From: Escherichia phage EcWhh-1
Reading direction: 5' to 3' (one strand)
Length of the DNA stretch: 64,000 nucleotides
Sequence record: MH791409.1
Shown here: piece after piece, positions 9,134-58,608 of the stretch
Layout: each line of letters begins with the position of its first letter
How positions within the stretch are numbered: the stretch's first letter is position 1
The notes under the pieces: generated by a model
The model's database searches: none
Seen by the model: the letters and a program-made list of their open reading frames with translations, nothing else
Told to the model about the DNA's origin: nothing
Program-made: the position numbers and the translations under genes

Positions 9134-9748
9134 TCAGTAAGAAAGAACGGAAAGATTCCAAATGGTGTAATTATTCCATTTAGGATTTCTCTCAATAGAG
9201 TCTACGCGCAGCGTAGTTCCCGCAGGGAACATCATCTCATCTTCATCATTAATTAATTGTAAGTTTGCTACACGTGTAGATTCAGGAAATGCGCCTGGGA
9301 ACTCTTCAGGGGGCGCAGCACATAACATTTTAAAGATTTCTTCCTGATAATTGTACACAAATGGCGCATCATTAATACAAAAGATATTAAATGTGCCGTA
9401 GAAGTTATAAGATGCGAAATTCCTTGCTACGTTGAAGTCTTTAGAGAAGCTCATCACACGGTCGAATTCAATTACCGCACCCACACACATTGTGGACTCT
9501 AGATACTTCAGGGTCTTTTTAGATATACCGCGATAGAGCTTATCAGGCACTACAGAAGTCAGGTTCTTACGAATAATTTTGTTCAGAGTTTCCTGGATAG
9601 AATCAGGTTTATTTTCCATACACTGCCAGAGCGTGCTCTGTTCTAAATCAGAATACACCTCATCAATTTCTATCTGAGTATTCTCACGGAAATCATCGCA
9701 TTTGGCATTGTTGATAAATTCTGCTAATTTATGGCTTGGATATAACAT
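9134..9748 (-). CDS. ADP-ribosyltransferase (ModA/ModB-like)
   Basis: 204 aa; R-S-E triad candidates: LYRGIS, SFSKDF, NDEDEMMF; tandem with a second paralog as in T4 modA/modB. Confidence 0.55.
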   Translation of the reverse strand: MLYPSHKLAEFINNAKCDDFRENTQIEIDEVYSDLEQSTLWQCMENKPDSIQETLNKIIRKNLTSVVPDKLYRGISKKTLKYLESTMCVGAVIEFDRVMSFSKDFNVARNFASYNFYGTFNIFCINDAPFVYNYQEEIFKMLCAAPPEEFPGAFPESTRVANLQLINDEDEMMFPAGTTLRVDSIERNPKWNNYTIWNLSVLSY

Positions 9749-9773: not shown

Positions 9774-9803
9774 ATAGTAACATAAGCATCCTTGCCTGTA
9801 AAC
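9774..9803 (-). promoter_or_regulatory. early-type promoter (GTTTAC, 18 nt, TACTAT)
   Basis: minus strand GTTTACAGGCAAGGATGCTTATGTTACTATCTTTCTATCAAC. Confidence 0.4.
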
Positions 9804-10372
9804 TAAAAATCTAACATTTTTAAATGAATTGTTTTATACTCGATTTCGTATGGATCCCTTTTGACGGTTTCGATTGCAACAATCTCAAATCGCGATAGAC
9901 TAGAGACCATGAACTCACATTCAGTTTCAACCATATCATAGAGGTCGATACGAGATTCATCTATTTCAAGCTCATCCACATTCCCTGCAAGAACAAGGTC
10001 GATAGCATGATTGTAGTAGTCGAAAATGAACGGTGCATTCCTGAGACTTAAAATGGTTTTGGTTCCATACTCCCATGCCCCTGCGAACTGACGAGCCTGA
10101 GAGTATTGTGTACTAAAAGAAGTAACTCGACCAGGAGACCATTGACACCCTACTGAAAGGAGCTCTAATTGCTCAAGTTCTCTGGTGGTAATCCCACGAT
10201 ACAACTCTACTGGAACCGCTGAAGTAACATGCTTGCGAACCAGTTTGTCGAGGTCGTAATGGAAGTTAGGGTCTTTTTTGGCGTCCAGACATTTCTCTAA
10301 CAACGCTTGTTCAGATTTTGAAAATTTAGAATTGATTCGGTCTTGATAAAGACATTTTTGTTCGATGTTCAT
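9803..10372 (-). CDS. ADP-ribosyltransferase (ModA/ModB-like)
   Basis: 189 aa; LYRGITTRE (Arg), SFSTQYSQAR (S-T-S), ECEFMVSS (E-x-E). Confidence 0.55.
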   Translation of the reverse strand: MNIEQKCLYQDRINSKFSKSEQALLEKCLDAKKDPNFHYDLDKLVRKHVTSAVPVELYRGITTRELEQLELLSVGCQWSPGRVTSFSTQYSQARQFAGAWEYGTKTILSLRNAPFIFDYYNHAIDLVLAGNVDELEIDESRIDLYDMVETECEFMVSSLSRFEIVAIETVKRDPYEIEYKTIHLKMLDF

Positions 10373-20009: not shown

Positions 20010-20903
20010 CTAGCATACTACGTCCTCATAACGTGGCATTTCGTATTCAGAATGAATATTGGCACCGAAATAAATGAATTCAGCCAGACCAGGATGGAAT
20101 ACTAAACCTGGGTTCTCATGATAAATGATATGTGGTCTTGATTTCAGAATTTGATAATATTCAACCTTACTCGGTTTGAATTTAATAATCTCTACATCAG
20201 GACGATAGTCTTCGCGCTTAAATGAATCATTAGGGTCGGTGATATAAAGACGAGCACCTTCAGCGGCAGCTTGGTCTACAACTCTTTCGAATTGATAACA
20301 CTTATCCGAAATACGGAATGGATGGAAAATACCATCAATTTTAATAGGCGCTAGACCTTCAGAGTAACGCTCAATTACTGCAGGATTAATTACCTTTTGG
20401 TCTACAAAAATCTTATCAGAGGATGCACCTCGTGACATCAGGACGTCTTTCTGGCATTGATTCAAGACTGTAGTATAAAGTGAACGTTCAACTGAAGCCA
20501 CATCAATATCAATGAACTCGTCGATATAATAACGAGGAACTTCAGGGTCCATTGTGATATTAAAGTTGAATTGTACAGTATGAGCACCATCATAACCGGT
20601 GATATCGGTCACCAGTCCTGAGCAATCATAGTATTCGATTAGTGAATCGACTACAAACTCATTTTCAGACCAGAAATGTTTACGGGTTTCATAAGCATTT
20701 TCTTTATACCAAAGTGGTACGAAATTCAGTTCTGGGAATAATTCAATGCATTCTTTGATATCGCTCGAATTTCTAGGATAAGCCAGATAATCACCTGGAC
20801 GAGCACGATTTAAATGGAGTTGAAAATTACCGTCCTTAAGGACGGCATATTCACCTGTTTCGTAACTACGCATACTGAAAATAGGAACGATAAACAAACT
20901 CAT
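20010..20903 (-). CDS. unrecognised protein in the beta-glucosyltransferase slot; candidate hmC-modifying transferase
   Basis: 297 aa, no motif I can recognise; last gene of the coupled operon (ATGA overlap with the hydroxymethylase stop); occupies the uvsX-42 interval where T4 has beta-gt. Confidence 0.4.
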   Translation of the reverse strand: MSLFIVPIFSMRSYETGEYAVLKDGNFQLHLNRARPGDYLAYPRNSSDIKECIELFPELNFVPLWYKENAYETRKHFWSENEFVVDSLIEYYDCSGLVTDITGYDGAHTVQFNFNITMDPEVPRYYIDEFIDIDVASVERSLYTTVLNQCQKDVLMSRGASSDKIFVDQKVINPAVIERYSEGLAPIKIDGIFHPFRISDKCYQFERVVDQAAAEGARLYITDPNDSFKREDYRPDVEIIKFKPSKVEYYQILKSRPHIIYHENPGLVFHPGLAEFIYFGANIHSEYEMPRYEDVVC

Positions 20904-21598
20904 TTCAGGAAACCTCGGACGTAGTCAAAATCACGTTCAAACACGTGTGCACTTACCATGGTGTGGGAATATGTACCTAAACCGACACCACACTGTTCAG
21001 CAATAAATGCCATCAGTTTACCCTGCAGATAGAAATCCAGCTGCATAACAACGGCGCAGTTTTGTGAACGCATATGAGTGTGTGCATACAGACGTCCATC
21101 ACGAATATAATATGTTACCGAATCGGTACACGGATATTCTAGGGATTCGTCAGAATCAAGGAGGGCTTGGTCTTGTTCTTGGAGAATTTGGAACACAACT
21201 CGTCTCGAGTTAGGCTTTTCTTTAAGCTCTTTAAGTAGGGCTGGGAGTTGGGCCACAATTCGAGGGCCATAGAAAGTGTTGAAGTTTGCAGGCAATACGT
21301 CACTTTTCGGCTTATCAATGAACTTAGCAACATTAGGGTATTCCTTAAATGCTTCGGCAGCGTCAGTACCACCAGAAATCATAAATTTCCAAAAGGATTC
21401 GGCATATTCATAACTAATACGATTGATACGTGGGTCGGTGAATTTATAGGTGCTTGCATCCAGTACTTCTACCGAAGCAGAACCAATTTCATAACAACGT
21501 CCGATACGAGAATCAACTGCAAACTGTGGAGCTTCCAGGATTTCTTCGTTCATTTGTTTAAATGCATTTTCAAAACTAACAGCGGTAATGTGTTTCAT
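20900..21598 (-). CDS. 42: dCMP hydroxymethylase (thymidylate-synthase fold)
   Basis: 232 aa; PCTDSVTYYIRDGRLY...MRSQN......QLDFY aligns with thymidylate synthase PCHAFFQFYVADGKLS...YQRSCD......LPFNIAS; catalytic Cys conserved and Asp at the TS Asn177-equivalent position, the cytosine-specificity signature. Confidence 0.8.
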   Translation of the reverse strand: MKHITAVSFENAFKQMNEEILEAPQFAVDSRIGRCYEIGSASVEVLDASTYKFTDPRINRISYEYAESFWKFMISGGTDAAEAFKEYPNVAKFIDKPKSDVLPANFNTFYGPRIVAQLPALLKELKEKPNSRRVVFQILQEQDQALLDSDESLEYPCTDSVTYYIRDGRLYAHTHMRSQNCAVVMQLDFYLQGKLMAFIAEQCGVGLGTYSHTMVSAHVFERDFDYVRGFLK

Positions 21599-22131
21599 TT
21601 ATTCACCTTATTTTCAATATATTCGTTCAGACGTTTTAATTCTACCATATCAACATTAAGCAAATTATTATGGCCGTCATGATTTAAGATTTTAAACACG
21701 TTTTCAAAACATGTTTCGTATTGCCGGATAGTTAGGTTGAACTCATCTTTGGTTAATTTAATAAGGTCGTCTTCGAAGTCTTCGTCTAATGGATTGCGAG
21801 TTAAAATAACCTCGATAACGTTAAATTCGGATTTAAACCCTTTCCAATCTTCCAGTTCTACATAAGGGTCCATTTCACCACGAAGGAATCCTGAGTAAAC
21901 AATATTACTTGGATAACCACGGTCAAGGATATAAACGAAATTAGGGTCTAAAAACTTATACAGAGTTTCAACTAAAGCCTTATCGTTATCAGTTCCTAAT
22001 GAAATACACTTGCCATTAATCTTTTTAGGAAAATCAATAAGGCGGTATTTCTTATTGGATAACAGATTTTTAATTAAAGTGGACTTCCCGGAATTATCCG
22101 GGCCGTCTATAACAATGATTTTTGGATTCAT
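21595..22131 (-). CDS. P-loop nucleoside-monophosphate-kinase-like protein
   Basis: 178 aa; IVIDGPDNSGKSTL Walker A resembling thymidylate/dNMP kinases; ATGA-coupled on both sides within the operon. Confidence 0.55.
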   Translation of the reverse strand: MNPKIIVIDGPDNSGKSTLIKNLLSNKKYRLIDFPKKINGKCISLGTDNDKALVETLYKFLDPNFVYILDRGYPSNIVYSGFLRGEMDPYVELEDWKGFKSEFNVIEVILTRNPLDEDFEDDLIKLTKDEFNLTIRQYETCFENVFKILNHDGHNNLLNVDMVELKRLNEYIENKVNK

Positions 22132-22526
22132 GGATGATAGGCCTTATAACTATCAAGAGTTCCTTCACGAACCATTTCTTTAAAGTGGTCAGGACGGATT
22201 GCTCGGTCATCGATGATAAAAGTATAACTCGGCTTATGCGTAAGCAGATTATGATATTTCAATCCAATCTTTTCAAGGTTCTTAACCAATGCAGGAACTA
22301 CTTCAACCAAGATTCGACCTGGGCCACATGAAGTCATGCCACGGGCAGTGAATAATGTAATCTCGTACCCTTCATCATAAAGCTTATTAATCATGGACAC
22401 CATTTCGGTGTCCGGTTTAAAGTTCTCATAATCACGGTCATGGTTCCAAATCGTGATTGTGTTATCGATATCAAAACATAAATGTGGCTTATTTTCTACT
22501 CGATGCGACATTAAATTTTCTTCCAT
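22128..22526 (-). CDS. HAD-superfamily phosphatase-like protein
   Basis: 132 aa; CFDIDNTIT (DxDxT motif I), LFTAR (motif II Thr); start may be the second ATG at 22511, which overlaps the upstream stop as TAATG. Confidence 0.5.
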   Translation of the reverse strand: MEENLMSHRVENKPHLCFDIDNTITIWNHDRDYENFKPDTEMVSMINKLYDEGYEITLFTARGMTSCGPGRILVEVVPALVKNLEKIGLKYHNLLTHKPSYTFIIDDRAIRPDHFKEMVREGTLDSYKAYHP

Positions 22527-24184
22527 TGTTTGTGGAGTTCAGTAGAACCTGTAGGTTTATATTTTACACCAGTTTCCTGGTCAAGCAAAACCCACTTATC
22601 AGGACAACGAGTAATAATTTGAGCCGTGATAGGGTCACGAACTTCATCGACAAATTCACCAGTAATAAGCTTACGCTTATGAGGATGCCGCTTCAGCAGC
22701 ACACTCAGTTGATACAAACCGTTATAATAAGCACCCAGAGCTTTCAGAGGGTTATTCTTAAAGTAACCTGCCAGCGCCATCCAAATAACAGCAATCCAGA
22801 GCTTGTGCTTAAATGTGCACATAGGAATATCGTCTAAAGGCATAACCTTTTCGATATCAACGAATACACGAGTTCCGTTACGAGTTAATCCACCCCATAG
22901 AGGGTCTGAGTTAAATTTGTCATAGCCATCGATAGAATAAAGCACCTTAGCTTCATCATAAATCGCAGGGCCTTTAGAACTATTACCGAAATAACCACGT
23001 GGGTCGATGATTTTAATATCACCTTCGTCCGACAGCATAATATTACTGTAGTGCGGGTCGCCATGAATAAGTTGGTACGGTTCTTTATGTTCAGACAGAA
23101 TTTCTAGTGCATGGCGGAGAAGTTTTTCGGGGTCGCCTACTTTGAAATCGTTAACATAGGTAATGCCCTGTGGAGCAAAGCCTTCAATCAATCCGGCAAT
23201 AGAAGCATTACGAATAAGGACCTTGTCCAACACTTCTTTCTTAACATCGGAATACCATTGCTCATCGGACGGGTTATCGATAGTTCCACCGAATGAACGT
23301 AATGCACTAATGACCTTATAAACCATGAGGACTTTAGTTTCTTTGGACATAAACCGGTAGGCATCTGCCATGGTACGACCAAAGATACGTTCCATTTTAA
23401 TGAATTCGCCTGGAGAAAAGTCTACAATGCTAGGAACGAATTCAGAATCAATAGAATTATACCAATTGATTTCTTTAGATTGAATTTCTTTACCTAATTC
23501 GTTAGTTGGTACTTTAATAGCCAGATTCTCGGTGAACTCTAATTTATTAAATTCACGGTTAATTTCAGAATCTTCATGGGCCTTGGCAAGTTTCAATTTG
23601 TCACCGACATCAACTACAAAATCCAGTTTACGTTCAGTCAAATAGACCATTGAATCCAGGTTATCAGCAAGGTCTTCGCCATAATTAGAACGGTCGAAAC
23701 CTGTCCAATTGGCTACCTGATACAAACCAACTACACCGCCACCGGTACCAATTTCACGTAAGTACGGTTCTTCAAATGTAAAGCGACAGTCAGTTCCATA
23801 GGTATAACAATAGTCGTTACCCCATTCAACTTTATGACCGATAGGAATGATGTCACACCAGTTAAACAGGACATTATGGCCAATGATATCTTCGGCAATG
23901 CAATCGATAGCATGAGCTGAACCATTAGCAACATCAACGTTACGAATAGTGAATTTAGGCTTATCACCAGTAATCATGTTAATGGATTTAATATAGCCTT
24001 TAACGAGGTCGTTAAATTTGCTGTGAATAACCAGAATAATTTCATCTGATTGGTTACTATACAAATCATACAAATGTTTTAATACCGTATGTTGTTTGTA
24101 GTTAACCAATACCTTTGGGATTTCGTTAGTAATTGGATACAACCGTGAGCCAAGACCTGCGCCTAAAATAACAACCTTTTTCAT
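22511..24184 (-). CDS. bifunctional sugar-1-phosphate nucleotidyltransferase (N-terminal) / APH-ChoK-type sugar kinase (C-terminal)
   Basis: start moved to MKKVVILGAGLGSRLYPIT... (GxGxR nucleotidyltransferase signature); C-terminal HGDPHYSNIML...IKIIDPRGYFG (Brenner HGDxxxxN plus DxxG kinase motifs); ATG with GAGGAA Shine-Dalgarno. Confidence 0.6.
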   Translation of the reverse strand: MKKVVILGAGLGSRLYPITNEIPKVLVNYKQHTVLKHLYDLYSNQSDEIILVIHSKFNDLVKGYIKSINMITGDKPKFTIRNVDVANGSAHAIDCIAEDIIGHNVLFNWCDIIPIGHKVEWGNDYCYTYGTDCRFTFEEPYLREIGTGGGVVGLYQVANWTGFDRSNYGEDLADNLDSMVYLTERKLDFVVDVGDKLKLAKAHEDSEINREFNKLEFTENLAIKVPTNELGKEIQSKEINWYNSIDSEFVPSIVDFSPGEFIKMERIFGRTMADAYRFMSKETKVLMVYKVISALRSFGGTIDNPSDEQWYSDVKKEVLDKVLIRNASIAGLIEGFAPQGITYVNDFKVGDPEKLLRHALEILSEHKEPYQLIHGDPHYSNIMLSDEGDIKIIDPRGYFGNSSKGPAIYDEAKVLYSIDGYDKFNSDPLWGGLTRNGTRVFVDIEKVMPLDDIPMCTFKHKLWIAVIWMALAGYFKNNPLKALGAYYNGLYQLSVLLKRHPHKRKLITGEFVDEVRDPITAQIITRCPDKWVLLDQETGVKYKPTGSTELHKQWKKI

Positions 24185-24244
24185 TATCTGTTCCTCAAGT
24201 GAATGTAGGTACATTATACACTATTTTTAATAAATTTCTATTGC

Positions 24245-52267: not shown

Positions 52268-52474
52268 TTAAAGACTATTTACATAAGCTATTAATTCATT
52301 TTCTTTCTCATCAAATCGATTGGCAAATTCTTCCTGGTGTTCGGCATCTATAGGGCCATATTCATCATAAAAAGAATTTGCTTCTGCATGCTCATCCAAA
52401 AGCTCATGGATAAGCTCAAATAATTTATCTTTCTGTTCTTTACTCAGACTCATAACCATTGCACCTTTAAGCAA
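52268..52474 (-). CDS. hypothetical small acidic protein
   Basis: track ORF 68 aa. Confidence 0.35.
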   Translation of the reverse strand: MLKGAMVMSLSKEQKDKLFELIHELLDEHAEANSFYDEYGPIDAEHQEEFANRFDEKENELIAYVNSL

Positions 52475-52662
52475 TATTCTTCTACATGATGTTTACGTTT
52501 ATTTTTATCTATAAAAGTATATTCAACGTATTCACCGATATACCATTTATCGGTGTTGTGTTGACTTTTTATAGGGCATTTAGTTACTCGGGTTTCAGTC
52601 CAACGTCGAATAATTTCCGCTTTGTTTTTAGGGTCAAACGGATGTGGGTAATGGGCTTTCAT
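52450..52662 (-). CDS. hypothetical small protein
   Basis: track ORF 70 aa. Confidence 0.35.
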   Translation of the reverse strand: MKAHYPHPFDPKNKAEIIRRWTETRVTKCPIKSQHNTDKWYIGEYVEYTFIDKNKRKHHVEEYCLKVQWL

Positions 52663-53101
52663 AATCTACCACCACTAAATTAATATCAGGAGTAAACAAA
52701 TTAATCAATTGATAAACCTTGTCCCAATCACCACCAGCAATACCACAACCGATACGAGGGATATAAATTCTTGGTTTAAACAAAAGACCCTTTGCGGTAC
52801 GGTTTAATTCTATCATACAGTTTACTAAAGCACCGTAATCAAGATTAGGACCTGGTTCGTATTGGGTGTATAAATTATAGCAAATTTGGCCCTTATTACC
52901 TGTGGCTTGAGTAAACGTGCCAAGTTTTTCCAAATGGCCTAAATAAGTGGTTTTATCGATAGCGAGAATAGGCGGATAAGCCTTAGCCAATTGTCCGGCT
53001 ACACCTGAACCCATTGTGTGGAAACAGTTGCACCCGTGCGCAACATTATTGCCTTGAAGAAACAGGGCGACGATATCGCCCTTAATATAATCAATAATCA
53101 T
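52634..53101 (-). CDS. macro-domain-like protein (ADP-ribose binding/processing fold)
   Basis: 155 aa; GDIVALFLQGNNVAHGCNCFHTMGSGVAGQL aligns with the macro motif GDIT...VNAAN..L.GGGGV.GAI, and IPRIGCGIAGG with the second glycine-rich macro motif. Confidence 0.5.
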   Translation of the reverse strand: MIIDYIKGDIVALFLQGNNVAHGCNCFHTMGSGVAGQLAKAYPPILAIDKTTYLGHLEKLGTFTQATGNKGQICYNLYTQYEPGPNLDYGALVNCMIELNRTAKGLLFKPRIYIPRIGCGIAGGDWDKVYQLINLFTPDINLVVVDYESPLPTSV

Positions 53102-53454
53102 TTAGAGTTTAATCCTCGATTGTAAGAATCGACGAGTCTGTCTACCATAGACGCGCACATTTCTTTGTACTTTTTATCAGATGGAATACATTCAGTAACG
53201 TTTAGACGTTGCTCGTATCTTTTAGAAAGAGTTTTCTCTTTCATTCGGCGATGCTCTACGTCGTTCTGGCCATCTTTAAAAGCAGCTGTGATTTTTGAAC
53301 TGAATTCGATAACGCATTCAGTATTACTTGGATGACAATAATCTTTTGCTGTACGGGTAGCATACTCGACAATTGAATTATTGCTATCATCAACTTGTGA
53401 CGCTAATACTCCCGGAGCTATCAACATAAGCGCTATAGTCATCTGCTTAATCAT
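53098..53454 (-). CDS. secreted/periplasmic hypothetical protein
   Basis: 118 aa; signal peptide MIKQMTIALMLIAPGVLASQ. Confidence 0.45.
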   Translation of the reverse strand: MIKQMTIALMLIAPGVLASQVDDSNNSIVEYATRTAKDYCHPSNTECVIEFSSKITAAFKDGQNDVEHRRMKEKTLSKRYEQRLNVTECIPSDKKYKEMCASMVDRLVDSYNRGLNSK

Positions 53455-55229: not shown

Positions 55230-55566
55230 ATTTCTTCCAGTCAGAAATCATATAAATCTCTTGGTCATATGTCAAGAGACTACGAGTTATAATACCCTTA
55301 CAAGGCCCTGAGATGAACTCGAGGGTGAAGTAAGGAACCTGTTTCATTAATCGGATGCTCGGGGCATGACATCTAAAACGAGAGCCCTTAAAGGGCCCTG
55401 TCATGAATACATATTCTAATGGATAGAAATAAGCATACTCGAAATTTTTAGTAAGGTCCTCTCTTCGAACCTTACGTGAGAAATAACAGAACTCAAAAAG
55501 TTCTTCATCAGTCATCATTGCATTCCTATCACAAAGAACAGAGGCAAAGGCTTGTCGCCTTGACAC
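55222..55566 (-). CDS. hypothetical protein (vs.x block)
   Basis: track ORF 114 aa. Confidence 0.35.
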   Translation of the reverse strand: MSRRQAFASVLCDRNAMMTDEELFEFCYFSRKVRREDLTKNFEYAYFYPLEYVFMTGPFKGSRFRCHAPSIRLMKQVPYFTLEFISGPCKGIITRSLLTYDQEIYMISDWKKYV

Positions 55567-57929: not shown

Positions 57930-58379
57930 TCAAAAGAGCGAATCTAAAACCTTAAACATCGACGGACCCATGACATATTCCCATTGAGGACGTTTAATCA
58001 AGGCGAACGCATCGAATTCAGGAACCGTGCGACCATCAGGGAACGTATGGTAAGCGGTACATTTGCAATCCTTGAACTGCTCGTGTTCCACAGGCACAGT
58101 ATATAAGAACAGATGTAGATTCTTATTGCTTGAATATTTGAACTCACCTAGGTCTTTCAGGAACGCAGGATCGTATGCTGTGAATCCGATCTCTTCTTCG
58201 GTTTCACGCATTGCCGCTTGAATAGGCTCTTCGCCCGGTTCGACATGGCCTTTAGGAATGTCCCATTTATGACGCATGTTCTCTGGATTACGAGAGCCTG
58301 TTACACGACCCATAACTAGTTCTTTATCAACGGTCATGAATAAAATACCGGCAGATAATTCTTTCGCTTTCTTACTCAT
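57930..58379 (-). CDS. nudE: Nudix hydrolase
   Basis: start moved to MSKKAKELSAGILF (ATG verified); Nudix box GHVEPGEEPIQAAMRETEEEIGF; sits immediately after e as in T4. Confidence 0.75.
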   Translation of the reverse strand: MSKKAKELSAGILFMTVDKELVMGRVTGSRNPENMRHKWDIPKGHVEPGEEPIQAAMRETEEEIGFTAYDPAFLKDLGEFKYSSNKNLHLFLYTVPVEHEQFKDCKCTAYHTFPDGRTVPEFDAFALIKRPQWEYVMGPSMFKVLDSLF

Positions 58380-58608
58380 CGTCTCGTTCCCATGATTGTT
58401 TAAAGATATCTCGTATAATAATTTCAACACATGTTTCTGTTGACGGACTTTCACTATCAGATATTTGGACCATATAATCAGAAATAGGTCGGAACATATC
58501 CAAGTCGCTTTCTAAATCTTCTTTGATTTTCTCTTCTGATGTTCCGGTGTCATAGGAATACAGATAAGAATCACATGACTCGGATTTAATATAAATTGCA
58601 ATACTCAT
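58372..58608 (-). CDS. hypothetical small acidic protein
   Basis: track ORF 78 aa. Confidence 0.35.
   Translation of the reverse strand: MSIAIYIKSESCDSYLYSYDTGTSEEKIKEDLESDLDMFRPISDYMVQISDSESPSTETCVEIIIRDIFKQSWERDDE

Follow-up and report, generated by a model that had tools for sequence, protein, structure and literature searches.

A Gln-type macrodomain encoded by tk.4 of Escherichia phage EcWhh-1 is a candidate anti-DarT2 factor

What does a macrodomain protein do for a T4-like phage, and which adenosine diphosphate (ADP)-ribose adduct would it act on? The question is raised by an open reading frame (ORF) of Escherichia phage EcWhh-1 (sequence record MH791409.1), of which a stretch of 64,000 nucleotides, referred to here as the window, was analysed. 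A prediction made from the sequence letters had assigned a macro domain to the 155-residue product of 52634–53101 and offered several roles for it: reversal of ADP-ribosylation, including that made on DNA by DarT-type toxins of the host, a tie to the phage's own ModA/ModB-like ADP-ribosyltransferases, or degradation of defence signals derived from nicotinamide adenine dinucleotide (NAD). Our preferred answer, to which we give a probability of roughly 0.65, is that the protein is an orphan antitoxin against DarT2 and removes ADP-ribose from thymidines in phage DNA.

Identity and active site of the window protein

The assignment of a macro domain is borne out by profile and sequence searches. 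The product scores 32 bits against the Pfam Macro profile (PF01661; gathering cut-off 22, E=1.3e-7, profile positions 2–117 of 118), matches PHROG 335 with E=5e-67, and is matched by sequence (phmmer) to the solved macrodomains of BT1257, SCO6735, Poa1p, M. tuberculosis DarG and TARG1. Both macro-domain motifs quoted in the original prediction are present in the translation. The protein has the three-layer alpha/beta macro fold, and the claim, which a structure prediction without that fold was to overturn, stands. Its closest structural relatives are TARG1, DarG and SCO6735/BT1257, not MacroD, PARG or viral macro proteins, which places this stand-alone, single-domain protein in the ALC1/TARG1/DarG class of macrodomains.

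This domain sits at a well-known position in T4-like genomes. The 4 kb around the ORF are 97.7% identical to Escherichia phage IME08 (Dhakavirus, Tevenvirinae), where the gene is annotated as tk.4 in the order tk, tk.2, tk.3, tk.4, vs, vs.1, regB; gene order around tk.4 is identical in the window, IME08 and T4. Identity to T4 Tk.4 is 53% over 155 of 155 residues (E=9e-62), and an identical protein from phage EcWhh-1 is already held in public databases. In sequence and in its place between vs and tk.3, the ORF corresponds to T4 tk.4, of which it is the syntenic orthologue in Dhakavirus; the original prediction had location and macrodomain identity right and did not recognise this long-annotated gene. 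A macrodomain is in itself nothing unusual in a T4-like phage: of 50,697 phage records 2731 contain a macro homologue, with phages of Pseudomonas (182), Vibrio (130), Acinetobacter (93) and Aeromonas (86) leading outside the enteric hosts, and 41% of myoviruses carried a macrodomain in a published survey (PMC9503650).

We examined conservation of the active site in a set of 121 sequences, the window protein and 120 homologues, counting at each position the sequences that cover it. In the first Gly-rich, phosphate-binding loop G33 and A35 are present in every sequence (121/121 each), and Asn25 (119/119) and Gln80 (120/120) are likewise invariant. Asn25 falls on Asn27 of SCO6735 in the phmmer alignment ('vahgcnc' in the window protein, 'iahvcnd' in 5e3b), and profile alignment places Thr79-Gln80 over Thr83-Lys84 of TARG1 and over the Gln of BT1257, with Ala122 at the position of TARG1 Asp125. 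TARG1 Lys84, DarG Lys80 and SCO6735 Gln85 are structurally equivalent (PMC9411070). Searches with phmmer against SCO6735 (5E3B), first with the whole protein and later with a fragment from its C-terminal part, aligned the flanks but not the Gln region, so that the equivalence of Gln80 rests on the profile alignment with TARG1 and BT1257 together with the published structural alignment. A nine-sequence alignment and the hidden Markov model alignment were mutually consistent; a five-sequence MAFFT alignment, in which the middle of BT1257 was misplaced and PhiKZ was shifted by two residues, was not used. Because Gln80 and Asn25 are invariant at the SCO6735-equivalent positions, we class the window protein, on alignment, as a Gln-type member of the ALC1/TARG1-like class and not as a Lys-type DarG. 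Both Gly-rich loops are conserved, and binding of ADP-ribose is predicted.

Protection against DarTG2 and competing functions

Genetic evidence from T4 connects this gene to a specific defence system. HIDEN-SEQ, a transposon-sequencing approach to phage gene essentiality described in a November 2025 preprint, found depletion specific to a DarTG2-expressing host for one T4 gene only, tk.4, and a clean tk.4 knockout was sensitised to this system; the authors gave the gene its new name adfM (anti-DarT factor macrodomain) and inferred that its product removes ADP-ribose from DNA (bioRxiv 10.1101/2025.11.20.689424). T4 lacking both adfA and adfN (encoding the NADAR protein gp30.3) is still resistant to DarTG2 (PMC11825919), which predicts a further factor, and tk.4 fills that gap. 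The CmdTAC paper, checked for a link to a macrodomain or to tk.4, mentions them in its reference list only. Among the options raised for the window protein, it is reversal of host DarT-type DNA ADP-ribosylation that the T4 genetics favour.

Two characterised macrodomains provide biochemical precedent. SCO6735 efficiently removes the thymidine-ADP-ribose made by DarT and rescues E. coli from the toxin; its Q85A variant is inactive and its N27S variant almost so, Asn27 being the residue that fixes the Gln in position (PMC9411070). Both SCO6735 and TARG1 act also on protein ADP-ribose esters (PMC9411070). PhiKZ gp104, which was independently named AdfM (Cell Reports 2026), removes DarT2-made ADP-ribose from a TNTC oligonucleotide in vitro, protects against DarTG2 and is imported into the phage nucleus (PMC13309987).

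By analogy with T4, the 53%-identical orthologue in the window most likely plays the same role, and protection would come about through hydrolysis and not through binding of DarT2. In the sequence of events that we propose, host DarTG2 releases DarT2, which ADP-ribosylates thymidines in single-stranded TNTC motifs and so blocks replication of phage DNA. The macrodomain would then bind ADP-ribose on the modified DNA and hydrolyse the N-glycosidic bond between ribose and thymine, yielding free ADP-ribose and restored DNA. Its chemistry would be of the SCO6735 type rather than the DarG type, with Gln80, held by Asn25, positioning the distal ribose and a water molecule taking the place of the catalytic lysine. 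We favour this reading because of orthology, the T4 genetics, the active site, the precedent of PhiKZ gp104, and the lack of NARP1 genes described below.

Several observations weigh against removal of ADP-ribose from DNA. The support from T4 is genetic and comes from a preprint, and 53% identity leaves room for a specificity unlike that of the T4 protein. Adpp of Vibrio phage Gary, which shares the Gln and the Asn and is a closer homologue than DarG, is a proven phosphatase. The window protein has neither the extended basic DNA loop of SCO6735 (Lys89/Lys94) nor the catalytic Lys and C-terminal DarT-binding domain of DarG, and Gly23 replaces Val25 of SCO6735, whose backbone holds the proposed catalytic water. 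Net charge was also considered as an argument against a DNA substrate (isoelectric point (pI) 6.25) and was rejected: PhiKZ AdfM has a pI of 5.05, yet it is a DNA de-ADP-ribosylase.

Free ADP-ribose may itself be processed further. T4 NudE hydrolyses ADP-ribose, and the window encodes a NudE-like Nudix hydrolase at 57930–58454 on the minus strand (Pfam NUDIX, E=1.1e-14), which could dispose of ADP-ribose released by the macrodomain. A metagenomic homologue of 247 amino acids (P0114) has a Tk.4-like macrodomain fused to a C-terminal Nudix domain (NUDIX, E=3.8e-13), a fusion that suggests coupling of ADP-ribose release and breakdown in some relatives.

The alternative that survives best, although we consider it unlikely, is that the window protein is mainly a phosphatase of the Adpp/Poa1p kind, converting ADP-ribose-1''-phosphate (ADPR-1''P) to ADP-ribose. 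Database records label it 'phosphatase' or 'A1pp motif', and the substrate is produced by RES-domain NAD+ phosphorylases, such as aRES defence, or by KptA-type RNA repair. Adpp of Vibrio phage Gary is an ADPR-1''P phosphatase that lets NARP1 overcome aRES, which phosphorolyses NAD+ (January 2026 preprint, bioRxiv 10.64898/2026.01.28.702374). Compared through the protein of Vibrio phage Rocket24, which is 98.7% identical to Gary Adpp, the window protein is 41% identical to Adpp and shares its Gln, its Asn and both Gly loops; an active site common to the two cannot discriminate DNA repair from phosphatase activity.

Gene context and the loop and motif signature do appear to separate Adpp-type from T4-type proteins. 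In Rocket24 the macro homologue lies between genes for a phosphoribosyl pyrophosphate-synthetase-like protein (Adps) and a nicotinamide phosphoribosyltransferase-like protein (Namat), which together form the NARP1 operon. A phage gains from the phosphatase only when it feeds NARP1: on its own NARP1 does not overcome aRES, and none of the three genes of the operon is dispensable. A tblastn search found no homologue of Adps or Namat in the window or in IME08 positions 2900–166500 (~95% of that genome). The signature of the window protein, NLYTQ with an 8-residue loop, is of the T4 type, whereas Adpp has NVYGQ with a 15-residue loop; among the 121 sequences compared the loop has 8 residues in 89 and 11 in the remainder. 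The DarTG2 phenotype of the syntenic T4 orthologue also speaks against a protein that is mainly a phosphatase. Because gene context and signature favour the T4 type, we rank DNA de-ADP-ribosylation above phosphatase activity. The two are not mutually exclusive, and it is quite possible that the window protein has phosphatase activity in vitro alongside DNA repair.

Macro copies embedded in NARP1 loci were seen in two arrangements: Adps, macro, Namat in Rocket24 (L005:3132–6138), and Adps, hypothetical gene, Namat, hypothetical gene, macro in Pseudomonas phage HHBS9_1 (L009:472–3983). Both copies have NVYGQ and a long loop.

It is conceivable, if doubtful, that a single Gln-type family (PHROG 335, ~2700 phage genomes) serves two counter-defences with the same active site, in which case the window protein could be bifunctional. 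Short and long loop signatures would then mark specialisation, T4-type for DNA repair and Adpp-type for NAD+ reconstitution, and the mechanism of T4-like phages would be water-mediated and free of lysine, unlike that of DarG.

There is much less to recommend a function without DNA repair, in which the protein would neutralise DarT2 or another ADP-ribosyltransferase toxin by binding it, or would degrade or sequester O-acetyl-ADP-ribose or Thoeris signals. That Q80, N25 and the two Gly loops are strictly conserved across the family argues for catalysis, and the window protein has no DarT-binding domain. In the literature searched neither genetics nor biochemistry connects the protein with Thoeris or with sirtuin products, and the 'deacetylase' names found in metagenome records are automatic annotations. 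For the proposed degradation of NAD-derived defence signals such as those of Thoeris we found no evidence: the nearest case is the 41%-identical homologue acting on ADPR-1''P, which is a breakdown product of NAD and not a signal.

Least probable is that the protein serves as an eraser for the phage's own ModA, ModB and Alt, reversing ADP-ribosylation or RNAylation of host proteins. The two ModA/ModB-like genes placed at 9.1–10.4 kb are real, with matches to PHROG 832, the related IME08 genome has two Alt-like genes, and activity on protein esters is known from SCO6735 and TARG1; but Mod homologues occur in 1063 phage records against 2731 for the wider macro family, the ten Mod genera listed are all enterobacterial and include none of Pseudomonas, Vibrio, Acinetobacter and Aeromonas, and the Mod genes lie 42 kb from tk.4 and are not co-located with it. 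Alt, ModA and ModB modify arginine, and to our knowledge the enzymes that remove N-linked Arg-ADP-ribose are of the ARH/DraG type and are not macrodomains. Depletion of tk.4 in T4 was, moreover, specific to the presence of DarTG2 (bioRxiv 10.1101/2025.11.20.689424). With such differing record counts and genera, the tie between the macro gene and the phage's own ModA/ModB is unsupported, and we judge the ModA-like gene, from its genomic distribution, to be functionally untied to tk.4.

The tk.4 locus and other features of the window

The features on which the analysis relies are collected in Table 1. The ATGA overlap of vs and tk.4 suggests translational coupling; a GAGGA sequence lies 11 nt upstream of the tk.4 start, at 53113–53117, and by ORF coordinates tk.3 starts within the end of tk.4, with 29 nt shared between the two. 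The gene is probably part of a tightly packed operon, co-transcribed and translationally coupled with vs in the cluster regB-vs.1-vs-tk.4-tk.3-tk.2-tk. Since a promoter scan of the window showed no enrichment over shuffled sequences (7 found, 11.7 expected), we claim no transcription signals or specific promoter.

Table 1. Coordinates in the window of the tk.4 gene, its active-site codons, its neighbours and the Mod-like genes
Feature	Position	Strand	Basis
tk.4/adfM-type macrodomain gene	52634..53101	-	ATG start, 155 codons plus stop
MGSGVAG codons (residues 30-36), first Gly-rich phosphate-binding loop	52994..53014	-	Aligns with TARG1 MGAGIA
Asn25 codon (HGCNC motif), equivalent of SCO6735 Asn27, predicted to position the active-site Gln	53027..53029	-	phmmer to 5e3b
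Gln80 codon (NLYTQ motif), site of TARG1 Lys84, DarG Lys80 and SCO6735 Gln85	52862..52864	-	Profile alignment and PMC9411070
GCGIAGG codons (residues 118-124), second Gly-rich loop	52730..52750	-	Aligned to TARG1 GCGLDRL; conserved
vs (valyl-tRNA synthetase modifier), upstream neighbour of tk.4	53098..53454	-	PHROG 1256, E=3.6e-34; IME08 annotation
ATGA overlap of vs stop (TGA) and tk.4 start (ATG)	53098..53101	-	Read from sequence and ORF ends
tk.3 (DUF7202), downstream neighbour of tk.4	52450..52662	-	Pfam PF23832, E=1.1e-36
ModA-like ADP-ribosyltransferase	9134..9748	-	PHROG 832, E=1.5e-44; IME08 modA
ModB-like ADP-ribosyltransferase	9803..10372	-	PHROG 832, E=2.9e-37; IME08 modB

A sigma-70-like, near-consensus promoter sequence was noted on the minus strand at 55247–55275 (TTGACA, 17 nt, TATGAT; 11 of 12 matches), in the upstream part of the cluster containing regB, vs.1, vs and tk.4. 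A GC-rich, terminator-like hairpin (53064–53082, minus strand; AGGGCGATATCGTCGCCCT, then GTTTCTT) lies within the coding sequence of tk.4, about 20 nt from its 5' end; it could be due to chance or could modulate translation coupled to vs. In a study of phage T2 the small RNA ArcZ contacted tk.4 mRNA with no effect on the protein; this has no bearing on function.

One other cluster, at 20010–24214 on the minus strand, was suspected to be a NARP1 operon since its 297- and 567-residue ORFs resemble Adps and Namat in size. It was rejected: Pfam and PHROGs show other enzymes, and neither Adps nor Namat of Rocket24 gave a tblastn match there. Its five genes encode a member of PHROG 3891 (unknown function), three proteins resembling a thymidylate synthase, a kinase and a phosphoheptose isomerase, and a 567-residue fusion of a nucleoside triphosphate-transferase and a kinase, and are homologous to RB69 orf047c-052c. 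The cluster is probably a DNA hypermodification pathway, presumably for the arabinosyl-hydroxymethylcytosine of RB69-like phages.

Further members of the macro family differ in their ends and surroundings. The protein of Felixounavirus SME50 (L008:3495–4280) has a C-terminal extension of ~105 amino acids, with no NARP1 genes nearby, and that of Justusliebigvirus ESCO8 (L010:3240–3956) has an N-terminal extension of ~80 amino acids and is encoded directly downstream of an annotated orotate phosphoribosyltransferase gene. Outside the region corresponding to the window, IME08 carries the tandem Alt-like ADP-ribosyltransferase genes alta and altb (L007:7655–11872) as well as a 30.3 orthologue and 57B (L007:14523–14990; L006:3945–4403). 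In T4, 30.3 is AdfN, the NADAR anti-DarTG1 factor, and 57B is Acb1. Both types of DarTG are probably countered in the IME08 lineage by several layers of defence.

Comparison with known systems

T4 Tk.4/AdfM is the system most like the window protein: both have 155 residues, with 53% identity, the position between vs and tk.3, the NLYTQ and HGCNC motifs and the short loop. The two differ at 47% of residues, with GAGIGKG in T4 and GCGIAGG in the window protein, and among T4-type proteins the DarTG2 protection phenotype is that of T4 Tk.4 only. The name tk.4 has been in use for this gene in annotations of T4-like genomes for two decades, and the anti-DarTG2 role of the family was reported in 2025. 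Dhakavirus labels such as 'phosphatase' or 'hypothetical protein' could now become 'AdfM-like anti-DarT2 macrodomain (predicted)', and in phage therapy the presence of tk.4 would predict resistance of Dhakavirus phages to hosts carrying DarTG2.

SCO6735 of Streptomyces coelicolor (PDB 5E3B) and BT1257 of Bacteroides (2AFC/2FG1) are, like the window protein, Gln-type and ALC1-like, and the SCO6735-type arrangement of a Gln held by a conserved Asn is represented in the window protein by Q80 and N25. They are bacterial, whereas the window protein comes from a phage, and they carry a 5–7-residue insertion after the Gln, which in SCO6735 includes the DNA contacts Lys89 and Lys94 and which is absent from the window protein; by profile alignment its loop is 6 residues shorter than that of BT1257 and has no Lys. 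At the position of SCO6735 Val25, which acts through its backbone, the window protein has Gly23.

DarG, the type II/IV antitoxin of DarTG2 (PDB 5M3I, 5M31/5M3E, 7OMU), has a catalytic Lys80 where the window protein has Gln. The NCBIfam model antitoxin_DarG gave 20 bits against a cut-off of 250, over positions 12–138 of 338, and the match to the PADLOC DarG model was limited to positions 3–142 of 329; with these models no C-terminal DarT-binding domain was found in the window protein. Nor is there a DarT gene beside tk.4, its neighbours being vs (PHROG 1256) and tk.3 (DUF7202). Membership of the DarG family was rejected, since all three of these defining features are missing.

Adpp, with which we group yeast Poa1p (6LFQ) for comparison as a phosphatase, differs from the window protein in lying between Adps and Namat, while the window protein has no NARP1 partners. 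Since the T4-type family also contains Adpp, transfer of function across the family needs gene context.

PhiKZ gp104 resembles the window protein as a stand-alone phage macrodomain of similar size. It differs in its low identity (21%, pairwise E=0.002), its Lys-type FPTKDNW motif and its DarG-like chemistry. T4 Tk.4 and PhiKZ gp104 are, judging from their sequences, separate lineages, and the name AdfM now spans both, the Gln-type T4 Tk.4 and the unrelated Lys-type PhiKZ gp104. What the present comparison adds to the reported anti-DarTG2 role is that AdfM of the T4 type is Gln-type like SCO6735, that it forms a lineage apart from PhiKZ AdfM, and that its family includes Adpp.
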